DNA from: a virus
Taxonomy: Duplodnaviria > Caudoviricetes
Length of the DNA: 31,763 nucleotides
Strand: one strand, 5' to 3'
IMG/VR virus record: IMGVR_UViG_3300047561_000086
Location: 1-31,763 of that record
Shown here: positions 3,212 through 27,251 of the stretch, in pieces
Layout of the letters: each line of letters opens with the position of its first letter
Numbering within the stretch: the stretch's first letter is position 1
Notes under the pieces: model-generated
Databases searched by the model: none
Told to the model about the DNA's origin: nothing
What the model saw: only the letters and a program-made list of their open reading frames with translations
Program-made: the position numbers and the translations under genes

Positions 3212-4752
3212 TGCCAAAAATTGCCCAAAGGACTGCCGCTAATGTAGCGAGTATCCCAGCGCCCGTAGGCGGCTGGAATGTGCGTGATTCATTGGCAAAT
3301 ATGGCGCCGACTGATGCGGTGGTAATGACCAATTTCTTTCCGACTGTTTCAAGTGTAAACTTGCGCGGTGGATACAGCAAATGGTCAACAGGGATAACGG
3401 GCCAAGTTGAAACGCTAATGGCGTATGAAACTGGTTCTGTAAGTAAATTATTTGGGATTGCTAATGGCTCCATTTACAACTGCACAACTCAAGGCGCTGT
3501 CGGCGCTGCTGAAAAAACTGGGTTAACAAACAGCCGTTTTGAGCATATCAACGTTACAACGGCTGGAGGAAGTTATCTCTACGCTTGCAATGGTCTTGAT
3601 GACCCATTGCTGTACAACGGCACAACATGGGCAAGTATTAACGGCTCCAGCACAATTGCAATCACGGGCATAACCACAAATAAACTAAACAATGTGACGT
3701 TGTTTAAAAACCGAGTTTGGTTTATTGAAAAAGAAAGTTTAAAAGCCTGGTATTTGCCAACTAATTCGGTTGGCGGTGCTGCTCAAGTTTTAGACTTGAG
3801 TTCCATTGCCCGAATGGGCGGGTACATTGTTTCTTTGAGCGCCTGGACAATTGATGCGGGTTATGGCGTTGACGACAATCTGGTGTTTGTAACGTCCCAG
3901 GGCGAGATTATTGTTTATAGAGGCACAGACCCCGCATCTGCAAGCACATGGGCTTTAGCGGGCGTTTGGAAGCTAGGAGCGCCTGTTTCGCAGCGTTGTT
4001 TGTACAAGTATGGTGGCGACTTGTTAATTCTAAGTTTGGATGGCCTGTTGCCGTTAGCTTCAGCGTTGCAGTCAAGCCGACTTGATCCAAGAGTGAACTT
4101 GTCTGACAAAATTCAAGGCGCAATTACTGAAGCAACAACAAATTATCAAAATTCATTTGGTTGGGCTTTGCTTTATCACGCAAAAAACAATGCTTTGTGG
4201 ATTAATGTTCCTGTTGGTCTTGGGGTGCAAGAGCAATTTGTAATGAACACCATTACAAAGTCATGGACAAGATTTACAGGATGGGACGCTAATTGTTGGG
4301 AAACATTTGATGACAATCCTTATTTTGGCGGGGAGGGTTATGTTGGTTTGGCGTGGAATGGTTATGTTGATGACATAAACGACATTAATGCAACTGCTTT
4401 GCAGGCATTTAATTATTACGAAAGCCGTGGAGTAAAGAAGTACTTTACAAGAGCCAGGCCGTCCATTTTCACAGATGGAACCCCTGCAATTTTGGTAGGC
4501 ATAAATGTTGATTTTGATATTTCAAACACAACAGGAAGTTTAACTTTTAGTCCAACCAGTTATGGTTTATGGGATACATCCGTTTGGGACAACGCATTGT
4601 GGGCAAGTGGAACAGTCATAACAAACAATTGGCAAGGCGTTACAGGCATTGGCTACTGTGCGGGTATTCAGCTAAAATCAGCATCACAAGGCTTGCAAAT
4701 TGAGTGGGCCTCAACCGATGTTGTTTTTCAACAAGGATGGGCTGGTATATGA
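3211..4752 (+). CDS. Tail hub/nozzle, P22 gp10-like packaged-DNA stabilization protein
   Basis: 513 aa, beta-rich, N-terminal PAPVGGWN motif, TAATG coupling with the adaptor gene. Confidence 0.75.
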   Translation: MPKIAQRTAANVASIPAPVGGWNVRDSLANMAPTDAVVMTNFFPTVSSVNLRGGYSKWSTGITGQVETLMAYETGSVSKLFGIANGSIYNCTTQGAVGAAEKTGLTNSRFEHINVTTAGGSYLYACNGLDDPLLYNGTTWASINGSSTIAITGITTNKLNNVTLFKNRVWFIEKESLKAWYLPTNSVGGAAQVLDLSSIARMGGYIVSLSAWTIDAGYGVDDNLVFVTSQGEIIVYRGTDPASASTWALAGVWKLGAPVSQRCLYKYGGDLLILSLDGLLPLASALQSSRLDPRVNLSDKIQGAITEATTNYQNSFGWALLYHAKNNALWINVPVGLGVQEQFVMNTITKSWTRFTGWDANCWETFDDNPYFGGEGYVGLAWNGYVDDINDINATALQAFNYYESRGVKKYFTRARPSIFTDGTPAILVGINVDFDISNTTGSLTFSPTSYGLWDTSVWDNALWASGTVITNNWQGVTGIGYCAGIQLKSASQGLQIEWASTDVVFQQGWAGI

Positions 4753-5186
4753 ACGCAAAAATGGAAAAATTTGCAAATGTTTCAGCCGAGGCCGTAGTGC
4801 TTATTGGCAAACATTGGACTGAGCTTTATGGTAATGCCAACTTAAAAAGTGATTTAGGTGGCATGATTGAACTGGAAAAAACGGGAAATTTTGCATACTT
4901 TACTTTGCGCACCGAAACAGGTGAATTGGCGGGTCATGCAGGGTTTATGGTGTTCAGATCGCCTTTTTATGGCGAAATGCAAGCGCTGGACGTTTTTTAT
5001 TATGTGTTGCCAGATCACCGAGGCGGTCTTGGAATTTGCAAGCTGCTTAAATTAGCAGGGCAAATGCTTAAAGTCAATGGTGTAAGTCAAATCATGATAA
5101 GCCATAAAAAAAATCAAGATTTAAGCGTTTTGCTTCAAAGAGCAAACTATGAGCCATCAGGCGAAACATACGAATTTAAGGAATAA
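4749..5186 (+). CDS. GNAT-fold protein between tail and ejection genes (T7 gp13/P22 gp14 position)
   Basis: YVLPDHRGGLG acetyl-CoA-binding-like motif; start placed at the ATGA overlap (4749). Confidence 0.7.
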   Translation: MNAKMEKFANVSAEAVVLIGKHWTELYGNANLKSDLGGMIELEKTGNFAYFTLRTETGELAGHAGFMVFRSPFYGEMQALDVFYYVLPDHRGGLGICKLLKLAGQMLKVNGVSQIMISHKKNQDLSVLLQRANYEPSGETYEFKE

Positions 5187-17200: not shown

Positions 17201-17503
17201 TTACTCTGCAATTTCGTCGTCTTCGTCTTCGCATTCTGTTACGTCACATTCGTACCAATCGTCAGATTCCTCGTCGTACCAGTAATACACTTCATTTTCC
17301 TCATCGTACCAATACGCCACACCTTCGTCGTCGTACTCGTATTCTTCGTCTTCTTCTTCGTCATCATTGAAAAAGTCTACATCATCATCGATTTCTTCCA
17401 TGTTTTCAACAAAAGAAGCCAAAGCAACCAACTTCCAAAATTCACCAGTGTTGTACTTAACAACATCACCAAAACCAAAATTAATCTCAAGCGCAAAGTC
17501 CAT
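17201..17503 (-). CDS. Highly acidic aromatic-repeat protein
   Basis: 100 aa, about 42 D/E versus 2 K and 0 R; AGGGG SD; YWYDEE repeated. Confidence 0.75.
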   Translation of the reverse strand: MDFALEINFGFGDVVKYNTGEFWKLVALASFVENMEEIDDDVDFFNDDEEEDEEYEYDDEGVAYWYDEENEVYYWYDEESDDWYECDVTECEDEDDEIAE

Positions 17504-23906: not shown

Positions 23907-24278
23907 ATGGATAAGTACGCTGGATTTGTCTCAAACTTTGTTTTGGCAATGCTGCATTGCGGCACAAACGCCCATCTAATGCACTGGACAACCAATAGCT
24001 TTAGCAAGCATTCGGCCTTGGCTACGTTCTATGACCTGATCGTGGAGCAAACAGACGCATACGCCGAGGCTTACATGGGCAAATACGGGCAACTGAAGAA
24101 GTTTCCCAATGAGTACCACCCGCCAAACCCTGACCCAATTAAGTATTTTGAAGTGCTGTCTAAGTTCGTAATGAACATCAGAAAAGAACTTCCCCAAGAC
24201 TCAGAGCTAAATCAGCTTGTGGATAACATTCAAGAGAACATCGATTCAACCTTGTATAAATTAAAGTATCTGAACTAA
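23907..24278 (+). CDS. Ferritin/Dps-like protein (DUF5856-like)
   Basis: HLMHW...SKHSAL...YD...DAYAEAYMG ferroxidase-like spacing; ends TLYKLKYL; AGGA SD. Confidence 0.72.
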   Translation: MDKYAGFVSNFVLAMLHCGTNAHLMHWTTNSFSKHSALATFYDLIVEQTDAYAEAYMGKYGQLKKFPNEYHPPNPDPIKYFEVLSKFVMNIRKELPQDSELNQLVDNIQENIDSTLYKLKYLN

Positions 24279-24382: not shown

Positions 24383-24901
24383 ATGAAAAAAATGCAAATA
24401 GTCCAGCGCAAGATAGAAGATTTAATCCCTTATGTGAACAACAGCCGCACCCACAGCGATGAGCAAGTGGCGCAAATAGCGGCAAGCATCAAAGAGTTTG
24501 GCTGGACTAACCCAATCTTAGTAGACGGGGAAAACGGCATCATTGCGGGGCATGGGCGGGTCATGGCAGCCCGAAAGCTGAAATATAAGGAAGTGCCAAC
24601 CATTGAACTAACAGGAATGACCGAAACCCAAAAAAAGGCGTACATCATTGCCGACAACCGCCTGGCGCTTAATGCAGGGTGGGACAATGAAATGCTGACC
24701 ATAGAGTTAAACGACTTGCTGGCAGACGGTTTTGCCTTGGAATTGTTAGGTTTTGACCCTACTGAAATGCAAACACTAATAAATGGCGGTCCAGACTTTG
24801 CGCCAGCAACAGAAGATGAGCAGGGCAAATTAGATGAGTTAGACCCTAAATGGATTGCTTGCCCACATTGCGGGAAAGAATTTGATGCAAGACAAACCTG
24901 A
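24383..24901 (+). CDS. ParB/Srx N-terminal domain protein with C-terminal CPxCG
   Basis: PYVNNSRTH...SIKEFGWTNPIL...IIAGHGR...YIIADNRLA; CPHCGKEF. Confidence 0.9.
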   Translation: MKKMQIVQRKIEDLIPYVNNSRTHSDEQVAQIAASIKEFGWTNPILVDGENGIIAGHGRVMAARKLKYKEVPTIELTGMTETQKKAYIIADNRLALNAGWDNEMLTIELNDLLADGFALELLGFDPTEMQTLINGGPDFAPATEDEQGKLDELDPKWIACPHCGKEFDARQT

Positions 24902-25595
24902 ACTCAAAATAGATTGGGCAAGCCATGAGGCTGCAAAATATGCTTGTGAAAATTGGCATTACAGTAAAGTAATCCCCGTAGGAAAACTTGTTAAGGTAGG
25001 TGCATGGGAAGGTGGTAAGTTTATTGGTTGTGTTATTTTTGGGCGTGGTGCTAACAATAATATGCTCAAACCCTTTGGTTTAAATGCCGATGAAGGTTGT
25101 GAGTTAGTCCGAATTTCATTGCGTAAACATGAAACGCCGGTAAGTAAAATTTTATCTTTTGCTTTGAAGTTTTTAAAGAAACAATCACCTGAACTGCGAT
25201 TGGTTGTGTCTTACGCTGATGCTGACCAAAATCATCATGGTGGAATTTATCAAGCAACAAATTGGATATATGATGGTTTAAAAAATGCAAACACAATGGG
25301 TGCTTTTATCATAAATGGCAAAAAAACACATCCAAAATCGGTGCATAGCAAAGGCATAAAACAAACCATAGTAGCTGTAAAAAAACATTTAGACCCTAAT
25401 GCAACAATTTTTTATACTAAAGGCAAACATCGGTATTTAATGCCTCTTGATAAAGAAATGGGTGCTAAGATTGCACCACTAGCAAAGCCTTACCCTAAGC
25501 GTGAGAAGCAGGCGATGGTCGATTCCCTCGACACAGCGGCGGTGCGTCACCGACCCTCACGCTCCATATTGATAGAAGAACTTTCGGAGATATAA
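24885..25595 (+). CDS. mom: Mom-family (GNAT-fold) adenine hypermodification enzyme
   Basis: WHYS, FIGCVIFG, ELVRI, VVSYAD...HHGGIYQATNWIYDG, KHRY, KPYPK motifs; lies between ParB-N and terminase genes. Confidence 0.8.
   Translation: MQDKPELKIDWASHEAAKYACENWHYSKVIPVGKLVKVGAWEGGKFIGCVIFGRGANNNMLKPFGLNADEGCELVRISLRKHETPVSKILSFALKFLKKQSPELRLVVSYADADQNHHGGIYQATNWIYDGLKNANTMGAFIINGKKTHPKSVHSKGIKQTIVAVKKHLDPNATIFYTKGKHRYLMPLDKEMGAKIAPLAKPYPKREKQAMVDSLDTAAVRHRPSRSILIEELSEI
25499..25566 (+). tRNA. Non-canonical tRNA(Gly)-like element, anticodon TCC, CCA encoded, inside the 3' end of mom
   Basis: Perfect 7-bp acceptor stem GCGTGAG/CTCACGC plus T-CCA; anticodon arm GTCG-ATTCCCT-CGAC; bulged T-arm GGCGG-TGCGTCA-CCG(A)CC; reduced D-arm. 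Confidence 0.78.
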
Positions 25596-25596
25596 A

Positions 25597-25929
25597 GTGC
25601 AGCAAGGCAAAAAATATACCCCGACTGATGATAATAAGAAGCTAGTCAAGACGCTAGCGGCGGTTGGCATTACCTTTGAAGACATAGCGACCAAGCTAGA
25701 AATCAGTTCAGACACGCTTGTAAAGTACTACAAAAAAGAATTGGACGATGGGCGCATTGATGCTAACGCAAGCATTGGGCAGACCTTGTTCCAGCAGGCA
25801 AAGAACGGCAATACTGCTGCGGCTATCTTTTGGCTAAAGACCAGGGCTAGATGGAAAGAAACCCAAGCGGTTGAGCTTAGTGGCCCTGATGGGGCTGAAA
25901 TGGTTATCAGATGGCAAGCGGAATCATAG
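25597..25929 (+). CDS. terS: Terminase small subunit
   Basis: N-terminal HTH, GNTAAAIFWLKTRARW, VELSGPDG tail; GGAG SD, GTG start; overlaps TerL. Confidence 0.85.
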   Translation: MQQGKKYTPTDDNKKLVKTLAAVGITFEDIATKLEISSDTLVKYYKKELDDGRIDANASIGQTLFQQAKNGNTAAAIFWLKTRARWKETQAVELSGPDGAEMVIRWQAES

Positions 25930-27251
25930 AAATCCCGTACAGCCCTAGAAAGCAGTTTAGGGAGTTTCATGCCAGAACTGAACGCTGGGCTTGCTTGGTG
26001 GCCCACCGTAGGGCGGGCAAGACCGTGGCGGCTATCAATGACCTTATCAGGGCGGCAATCACTTGTAAAAGCCCCATGCCCTTGTTTGGGTACGTTGCCC
26101 CGTTTAGGAGCCAGGCTAAGAGCGTGGCGTGGGATTACCTTAAATACTTTGCCCGTCCCATTACCAAGTCCAGCAATGAAGGCGACCTAATCATTGAATT
26201 GCTCAATGGGGCAAAGATCAGGCTATTCGGGGCAGACAACGCCGATGCCATGCGTGGGCTAGGCTTTGATGGCCTTTACCTTGATGAGTACGGGGACTTT
26301 AAGCCTAGTGTTTGGGGTAACGTAATCAGGCCGGCGCTATCAGATAAGCAGGGCTGGTGCGTCTTTGGCGGCACACCCAAGGGCAAGAATCAGTTTTGGA
26401 GCATCTATGAGACAAGCAGAAAACTGCCAAACGACTGGTTTTCGCTATCCCTGCCTGCCAGCAAATCCAAGCTATTGCCCGAATCCGAGTTAGATGCGGC
26501 AAAGGCCCAACTAGCGGAAGATCAGTATTTGCAGGAATATGAGTGCAGTTTTGAGGCCGCAATCGTTGGCGCGATATGGGGCATTGAGATGCGTAAAGTC
26601 ACCGAAGACGGGCGCATTACCAAGGTTGAAAACCAAATTGAGGTCAAAACACACACTGCTTGGGACTTGGGGCATACCGATGACACAGCGATTTGGTGGT
26701 ATCAAGTCATAGCTGGTGAGATACACATTGTTGATTTTTTTGCACTTTCTGGTGGCACAATCGAAGAATTTGTATCAAAAATCAAAGAAAAACCCTACAA
26801 TTACGGAAAGCACTACTTACCGCATGATGCAAGGGCTAGGACTTTGGCAAGCGGTGGGAAGTCAGTAATTGAGCAAATGGCAGCAAAATTGGGCATCAAC
26901 AACCTGGCTATTGTGCCAAGTTTAAGTGTCCAAGAGGGCATTCAGGCTGTGCGTACAGCATTGCCTAGATGTTGGTTTGATGCTGAAAAATGCGCAGATG
27001 GCATTGAGGCGTTAAGGCAGTATCAGCGTGAGTATGATGAAGACAAGAAGGCTTTTAGGCAAACGCCCAAGCACGATTGGACAAGTCACCCCGCTGATGC
27101 CATGAGGATGTTAGCAATTAGCTGGCGGGAAGAACCGAAAGATAAACCGCCAGACTCGAGTAAAGTGTTGATTGTTGGCCCTGAAAACGAAGTCACAATG
27201 AACGATATGTGGGCAATCCACAAACAAACCGCAAGGAGTAATCGAATATGA
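25911..27251 (+). CDS. terL: Terminase large subunit
   Basis: Walker A HRRAGKT, Walker B YLDE, GTPKG, nuclease WDLG...D and HPADA. Confidence 0.97.
   Translation: MASGIIEIPYSPRKQFREFHARTERWACLVAHRRAGKTVAAINDLIRAAITCKSPMPLFGYVAPFRSQAKSVAWDYLKYFARPITKSSNEGDLIIELLNGAKIRLFGADNADAMRGLGFDGLYLDEYGDFKPSVWGNVIRPALSDKQGWCVFGGTPKGKNQFWSIYETSRKLPNDWFSLSLPASKSKLLPESELDAAKAQLAEDQYLQEYECSFEAAIVGAIWGIEMRKVTEDGRITKVENQIEVKTHTAWDLGHTDDTAIWWYQVIAGEIHIVDFFALSGGTIEEFVSKIKEKPYNYGKHYLPHDARARTLASGGKSVIEQMAAKLGINNLAIVPSLSVQEGIQAVRTALPRCWFDAEKCADGIEALRQYQREYDEDKKAFRQTPKHDWTSHPADAMRMLAISWREEPKDKPPDSSKVLIVGPENEVTMNDMWAIHKQTARSNRI

Follow-up and report, generated by a model that had tools for sequence, protein, structure and literature searches.

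A tRNA(Gly)-like RNA family tied to phage mom genes and a candidate glycyl donor for DNA hypermodification

Mom of phage Mu moves glycine from Gly-tRNA(Gly) to N6 of adenine in double-stranded DNA; the terminal ribo-A is required, and Gly-tRNA(Ala) is rejected (PMC13219725). Here, we report a 68-nt tRNA(Gly)-like RNA written inside a mom-family gene of the IMG/VR virus record IMGVR_UViG_3300047561_000086, a complete record of 31,763 nt with direct terminal repeats (the window hereafter), whose head, portal, tail, and terminase genes are those of a tailed phage. The element belongs to a conserved family of tRNA(Gly)-like RNAs tied to phage mom genes, and its sequence features suggest that it is probably charged by the host, excluded from the ribosome, and used as a glycyl donor for Mom. 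The initial annotation of this DNA had pointed to work in which Mom's co-substrate is Gly-tRNA(Gly); this work exists and concerns Mu Mom (PMC13219725), and the interpretation built on it is supported, i.e., its computational predictions all held.

The stretch 25499-25566 forms a fold that is better than expected by chance (z = -3.1; of 200 shuffles, one did as well), in agreement with the tRNA-like fold first proposed, and all of the bases quoted for it are in place. Several details have to be corrected: the element does not start exactly after the codons for KPYPK, G1 being the third base of the last Lys codon; the Mom open reading frame (ORF) does not end at the element and instead reads through the whole RNA to a TAA at 25593-25595, so that the element is nested in coding sequence; and the anticodon arm, first read as a stem of 4 bp closing 7 loop nucleotides, has 5 bp (GTCGA/TCGAC) and a loop of 5 nt (TTCCC). 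The D-arm, described as nearly lost, is gone, and a 2-bp helix, recovered de novo from the alignment, is found in its place (Table 1). As predicted, standard tRNA finders miss the element: a scan of the window gave nothing with ARAGORN and no relevant match with Rfam, and on 39 homologous loci ARAGORN returned only an unrelated tRNA-Asn. Searching cultured phages with the 68-mer by blastn produced chance-level partial matches only. In a family-model search of the complete record, 25499-25566 is the sole match.

Homologous mom genes carry the same fold with compensatory changes, as the initial annotation had anticipated, and this holds in three alignments. Briefly, of 600 viral loci that encode a relative of the window Mom, the best 80 were taken as the protein-side set, and the element is carried by 56 of these 80 nearest loci. 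Among the 46 distinct copies found through Mom, G1-C72, C2-G71, G3-C70, UCCA, G49-C65, G53-C61, and the bulged A never vary, so that the glycine identity bases stay fixed while the surrounding stem pairs change; each of acceptor pairs 4-7 occurs in three to five types, and a single one of 184 cells is mismatched. When 40 short copies were aligned by plain MAFFT, 99.8% of the acceptor and T-stem cells were paired and 7 of 12 pairs changed on both sides, to which none of 500 shuffles and no slid register came close; the alignments used for covariation were not fitted to the structure, and the shuffle control does not account for relatedness. From 26 gapless 68-mers, RNAalifold arrived de novo at the same structure, in which 11 of 19 pairs are compensatory, and positions 32-38 pair Watson-Crick in all 26 of these homologues with four pair types. 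Please note that the homologues are related and that these counts are of non-independent events; four pair types at single positions would be hard to get by relatedness alone.

The family has a second form, a 76-nt cloverleaf with a covarying D-stem and the same T-stem bulge, in which 14 of 22 pairs are compensatory over 61 copies (the T-stem being fixed by the search pattern). At acceptor positions 4-7 of 278 distinct copies, G-U pairs outnumber A-C by 38 to 3, and the constraint therefore acts on the RNA of this strand. A second, Mu-like Mom subfamily carries a family member in 80 of 80 loci, a number somewhat favored because the query came from RNA-found proteins; 52 of these loci pass a strict parser (null 1/1600), and the other 28 are matched by the cloverleaf model. 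Weak matches of this model were read by eye because it gives canonical tRNA-Gly 34-46 bits too. L252 and L466 were counted as RNA-bearing after inspection. Forms with a 4-bp bulged T-stem and forms without an encoded CCA also occur in the Mu-like subfamily.

What stays constant is, to a large extent, what the glycyl-tRNA synthetase (GlyRS) reads. Bacterial GlyRS identity (Escherichia coli/Thermus thermophilus) is given as G1-C72, C2-G71, U73, C35, and C36 in a review (PMC9976931), and this full set plus CCA is present in the window element; G3-C70, which the initial annotation had counted as bacterial along with these, is listed there for an archaeon, and the third pair for yeast. CC is found in the anticodon loop of every one of the 46 Mom-found copies, and it was parsed in 108 of 110 copies from a pattern that does not specify it. 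The spacing from C36 to G49 is 11-12 nt in 120 of 122 short copies and 11 nt in 101 of 104 cloverleaf copies, i.e., it is held even where a short helix replaces the D-arm. Mom is speculated to read only the acceptor end of the tRNA (PMC13219725), and the conserved distant CC may therefore point to the synthetase. Third-pair variants (C3-G70 or A3-U70) are seen in L342, L346, and L664.

A canonical elongator tRNA has a D-arm, U8, a 7-nt anticodon loop, a TΨC loop, and an unbroken T-stem. The window element has none of these; what it shares with canonical bacterial tRNA(Gly) (RF00005) is the acceptor identity, the CC, U73-CCA, and the 12-bp acceptor/T stack, and its anticodon-to-T-stem spacing matches that of a tRNA with a 4-nt variable loop. 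Base 34 is free: it is A in 20, U in 18, C in 6, and G in none of the 46 Mom-found copies (two have a 4-nt loop), and A in 109, U in 99, C in 14, and G in 4 of 226 pooled copies. Glycine tRNAs with A34 are hardly known from bacteria. Only 82 of the pooled copies have U at base 33, U8 occurs in 0 of 131 short copies, and TΨC is not kept, position 55 being G in 43 of 46. The bulged A sits within the T-stem pairs 49-65, 50-64, and 51-63 that set the affinity for EF-Tu (PMC3239215). The copy of Arthrobacter phage Grekaycon has no bulge, but its C49-G65 and A51-U63 are the weakest-binding Watson-Crick pairs for EF-Tu (PMC3239215, Table 2).

The link to mom was then read from the RNA side, by three viral pattern scans and one genome scan that used no protein information. 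The least specific pattern covers the 3' 28 nt, and for it 120 matches were listed of about 1400 viral stretches estimated; a Mom gene lies beside 115 of these 120 and beside 72 of the 72 that are fully flanked (700 nt each side, matches with less flank being counted apart). For the other two viral patterns the figures are 70 of 70 and 70 of 71. In genomes, Mom is beside 51 of 56 valid, fully flanked matches, after 11 of 95 without a pairing acceptor stem (likely chance) and 3 incomplete ones were set aside; judging by their titles, the records come from Pseudomonadota, Chloroflexota, Bacillota, Acidobacteriota, and further phyla. Of the six exceptions, two have a PF22559 phage GNAT gene at a distance of 0.7-1.2 kb, one has Mom about 4 kb off on the same contig, one has it on another contig, and for two none was found. 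Family members in bacterial contigs without a nearby Mom (L417, L438, and L436) are beside PilZ, ferritin-like/PNPOx, or glycosyltransferase genes.

PF22559 is a GNAT family different from Mom, and we found no tested chemistry for an enzyme of this family. At PF22559 loci, a tRNA(Gly)-like RNA is present in 17 of 80 and a Mom match in 0 of 80. The RNAs near PF22555/PF22559 (DAM-like/GNAT-like) phage genes, as seen at L652:3237-4595, L653:8724-9272, and L656-L735, have the same glycine identity set, some with the same bulge and many without it.

The place of the RNA relative to the gene is not fixed. Copies are found at the mom 3' end, within the first mom codons, on the opposite strand, and outside the ORF, and tandem copies occur at L107, L113, and in Psychrobacter phage Y8A (L505:1862-2002), where two short copies follow one Mom-family gene and the sequence ParB, mom, RNA, terminase small subunit is that of the window; the pairs at L107 and L113 each combine two different short subtypes. 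In loci of the Mu-like subfamily, all nine antisense copies have TAnnTT(T)G, a -7 motif of the Bacteroidota type (consensus in PMC12632263), within 35 nt upstream. The motif is met in 81 of 1286 background windows and, among same-strand copies, in 3 of 14. At L544, a perfect sigma-70 promoter precedes the antisense copy. Sigma-70 and terminator scans gave weak consensus sites only, none assignable to the RNA element. The free position and strand, together with the promoter-backed antisense copies, suggest that the RNA acts in trans. On a FastTree phylogeny of 240 Mom proteins, the short and cloverleaf forms switch 34 times (shuffled 62-83) and absence of the RNA changes 5 times (shuffled 16-20); the RNA is thus a module that can be exchanged and that a few lineages lack, and strict co-evolution of Mom and RNA is rejected by the 34 switches.

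The window protein scores 154.9 bits against PF25680, for which the curated cut-off is 27.1. Its Mom domain ends at PYPK (residue 205), and the remaining 31 codons span the RNA element. The roles of Mu Mom residues W48, H58, Y59, R111, S124, D149, R151, Y159, and W181 are described in PMC13219725; by pairwise alignment, six of them are kept, i.e., H25 (H58), Y26 (Y59), R76 (R111), S87 (S124), D112 (D149), and Y122 (Y159), and R151, W48, and W181 are not, with D, E, and K at those columns, respectively. At L655:710-2290, a 527-amino acid ORF ends in a Mom domain, preceded by about 320 N-terminal residues that match nothing in Pfam.

Putting these together, we propose that the RNA would be cut from the late mom transcript by RNase P and 3' trimming and loaded with glycine by host GlyRS. 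EF-Tu, presumably kept off by the T-stem bulge, and the ribosome would ignore the charged RNA, and the window Mom would take the glycine to modify adenines of the phage DNA, possibly yielding the same 6-NcmdA base as in Mu. A late-expressed Mom would in this way gain a glycyl pool that translation does not drain. With the RNA inside the ORF, one transcript would yield either the protein (and the coupled terminase small subunit, terS) or the RNA.

Several observations weigh against this glycyl-donor reading. Mu Mom accepts all three E. coli isoacceptors with no partner RNA needed (PMC13219725). A model search finds no such RNA anywhere in the Mu genome, and 24 of the 80 closest Mom loci (58-65% identity) and 16 of 20 cultured Mom-phage records have no RNA beside mom. 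The window Mom is without R151, a residue essential in Mu; R or K at this position, which is no family-wide feature, occurs in only 5 of 220 homologues that bear the RNA and in 6 of 20 RNA-less Moms, a contrast from which nothing is drawn because these six form one clade. CC is absent in two clostridial copies beside Mom (L460:957-1025 and L466), which keep the acceptor, UCCA, and bulge, and A73 is found in two viral copies (L343:1642-1715 and L347:1645-1718). No measurement of what a bulge does to EF-Tu binding was found in PMC3239215, and either processing or charging could suffer from the degenerate T-loop and the lack of a D-loop.

The nesting itself is also a difficulty. Of 321 loci, 283 have a mom frame that stays open across the RNA; stops inside the RNA are met in this frame in 24 of 308 cases versus 327 of 616 for the other two frames, and the mom stop lies -14 to +10 nt from the next start in 130 of 193 loci versus 41 of 386 control frames, with overlaps mostly of -1, -4, and -8. 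Here too, the loci are related and the counts are not of independent events. Read-through and stop/start coupling thus appear selected, so many transcripts would be translated intact and not processed. As protein, the tail encoded across the RNA lacks conservation, and its reading frame varies. Read-through, we infer, serves to keep the downstream gene coupled, and the RNA would be released only from transcripts that are not translated.

Since Mu and 24 close relatives do without it, the RNA is accessory, probably a booster rather than an obligatory partner. The private glycine pool of the initial annotation has to be softened, given that Mu Mom, whose phage has no such RNA, works with all three isoacceptors (PMC13219725) and that 24 of the 80 closest loci are RNA-less. 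In the records of the 24 RNA-less loci, 23 have no model match anywhere and one has a canonical tRNA-Gly. The cultured records with the RNA beside mom are Psychrobacter vB_PmaS_Y8A, Salinibacter B2_17, Arthrobacter Grekaycon, and Microbacterium Dropshot; of the remaining 16, 14 have nothing and two carry a tRNA-Gly of canonical appearance elsewhere. RNA-less prophage Moms are followed by a terminator-like hairpin and then by a conserved branched RNA that pairs with the ribosome-binding region of the next gene (L053, L054, L059, L060, and L074, about 10-140 nt past the mom stop; a related form in L057, L064, L067, and L073). This branched RNA is a different element that neither model matches, and Rfam gave no match at the four loci tested. 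Another Mom locus holds an Rfam abiF RNA match above the gathering score (L016:1887-1923).

Other roles of the RNA were weighed. A resupply or decoy tRNA would be charged and would mainly shield the reaction, or the host Gly-tRNA pool, from anticodon nucleases and Gly-tRNA-acetylating toxins. Its closed anticodon loop and free base 34 would suit escape from a nuclease, and TacT reads U73 and G71 of Gly-tRNA(Gly) (PMC9976931), both of which are kept here; a general decoy, however, need not stay ≤1.5 kb from mom in 72 of 72 loci, nor need it follow a second phage GNAT family. We regard this as unlikely, even if it is partly compatible with the donor reading as a reason why the RNA is retained. 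It is also improbable that the element is a cis-acting processing or regulatory site, at which RNase P or GlyRS would cut or bind the mom-terS mRNA to dose a host-toxic enzyme, the released RNA being a by-product. Nesting at the ORF 3' end or in the N-terminal codons and the selected read-through and coupling fit such a site, but antisense copies behind promoter motifs do not, nor do tandem copies, those outside the ORF, or those at 0.7-1.2 kb from the GNAT gene, and processing alone needs neither C35/C36 nor a fixed anticodon-to-acceptor spacing.

Quite improbable is an uncharged inhibitor, i.e., an RNA antitoxin that fills the tRNA site of Mom and spares the host DNA: tight linkage, action in trans, and an acceptor end that is what Mom is thought to read (PMC13219725) would all be expected, but there would be no reason to keep the anticodon CC and the exact UCCA, both synthetase determinants. 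That the element is a functional but odd translational tRNA(Gly) for late phage protein synthesis seems very improbable given the free base 34, 5-nt loop, lack of U33 and U8, T-stem bulge, and, in the short subtype, missing D-arm, even though cloverleaf members pass Rfam RF00005 at 4 of 14 element-bearing loci tested and single family members are annotated as plain tRNA-Gly in GenBank. A decayed tRNA, att remnant, protein-coding by-product, or packaging DNA hairpin, as its location in an ORF directly before terS might suggest, is hardly credible in view of the compensatory changes, the G-U excess, the frame-variable and unconserved tail, the other positions and strands, the pattern scans made from the RNA side, the non-canonical T-arm, and the lack of an integrase in a scan that covered some but not all ORFs of the window.

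Beyond the window, we lean slightly toward a more general picture, in which phages would carry widespread, uncatalogued aminoacyl-carrier RNAs that are charged by GlyRS, excluded from EF-Tu, written in the ORF of their own enzyme, exchanged among Mom lineages, and shared with PF22559 as a putative tRNA-dependent DNA glycyl-transferase, one transcript giving either the enzyme or its co-substrate.

At the locus, genes for a ParB-N protein, Mom, the terminase small subunit, and the terminase large subunit follow each other in this order (Table 1). Directly upstream of the ParB-mom module is a DUF5856/ferritin-like protein (PF19174, phrog_858; 23907-24278). A second acetyltransferase-like ORF (phrog_1249) is at 4704-5186 among structural genes. 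On the minus strand, 17201-17503 encodes a very acidic, Asp/Glu/Tyr-rich ORF of 100 amino acids without a PHROG match, possibly a DNA mimic, which is a guess. No repeats of note were seen.

Table 1. Coordinates of the tRNA(Gly)-like element and of the genes around it in the window.
Feature	Position	Strand	Evidence or remark
ParB-N-domain protein, overlaps mom start	24383..24901	+	PF02195 E 7e-6; phrog_620 E 3e-64
Mom-family GNAT ORF, 236 aa	24885..25595	+	PF25680 E 3e-45; phrog_1384 E 8e-58; PDB 8bv8 E 1e-6
68-nt tRNA(Gly)-like RNA, D-arm-less (short) subtype	25499..25566	+	bases, fold, covariation
Acceptor stem 5' strand, pairs with 25556-25562	25499..25505	+	pairs 1-3 invariant 46/46; pairs 4-7 covary
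Extended anticodon arm	25512..25537	+	2-bp helix 25512-25513/25536-25537; 5-bp stem 25518-25522/25528-25532; 5-nt loop 25523-25527
Anticodon UCC	25524-25526	+	in 5-nt loop
T-arm of 5 bp with a 7-nt loop of non-canonical sequence; the bulged A (25553) separates pairs 50-64 and 51-63	25538..25555	+	bulge 46/46; 3/5 pairs covary
Discriminator U73 and encoded CCA	25563..25566	+	46/46
Terminase small subunit (terS)	25597..25929	+	phrog_309 E 5e-19; start 1 nt past mom stop, coupling arrangement
Terminase large subunit	25911..27251	+	profile matches

If the donor reading is true, one of the most common phage DNA hypermodification systems gains, shortly after the co-substrate of Mom was identified, an RNA component that had gone unrecognized, and a chemistry is predicted for the uncharacterized phage GNAT family PF22559. 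The phage's own glycine supply would likely serve the disguise of its DNA. The natural series from a near-canonical tRNA over the bulged cloverleaf to the D-arm-less 68-mer would show what GlyRS needs and how EF-Tu is avoided, which bears on orthogonal aminoacyl carriers. It is also an example of a tRNA gene nested in a translated, coupled ORF and missed by annotation tools, as in Y8A, for which the phage paper reports no tRNA genes (PMC10434257). The cultured phages that carry the RNA make the reading directly testable.

Two known systems come close. Mu Mom (PF25680, PDB 8bv8) is of the same family as the window Mom, with the six active-site residues and the C-terminal PYPK common to both; identity is 22%, and R151, W48, and W181 of Mu are not kept in the window Mom. 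Phage Mu uses host tRNA(Gly) isoacceptors, whereas the window phage carries its own tRNA(Gly)-like RNA (PMC13219725 for Mu). The main text and two searchable supplements of that paper make no mention of a mom-linked tRNA, and full-text literature searches, whose coverage leaves out most subscription papers, found no mom-linked tRNA-like RNA. That a non-proteinogenic (NP) tRNA can supply a GNAT-fold transferase has a precedent in staphylococci; not known so far were this RNA family, the way it is built, its location within the ORF, and a partner directed at DNA. The Staphylococcus aureus NP1/NP2/NEW tRNA(Gly) species, which work with FemX/A/B, keep glycine identity and are altered in the EF-Tu region of the T-stem (PMC12256121, PMC9976931), and their partner is a GNAT-fold aminoacyl transferase, like Mom. 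The lack of G49-U65/G51-C63 that marks them (PMC12256121) is shared by the window element, which has G49-C65, C51-G63, and the bulge; the UCC anticodon, chromosomal operon, and Fem partners are not shared by the phage family. The staphylococcal RNAs are chromosomal, read UCC, sit in tRNA/rRNA operons, have T-stem pair substitutions, and feed peptidoglycan, whereas the phage RNAs are phage-borne, usually nested in the ORF of the enzyme, free in base 34, and often D-arm-less; their anticodon loop is closed to 5 nt, their T-stem is bulged, and the recipient of the glycine would be DNA.

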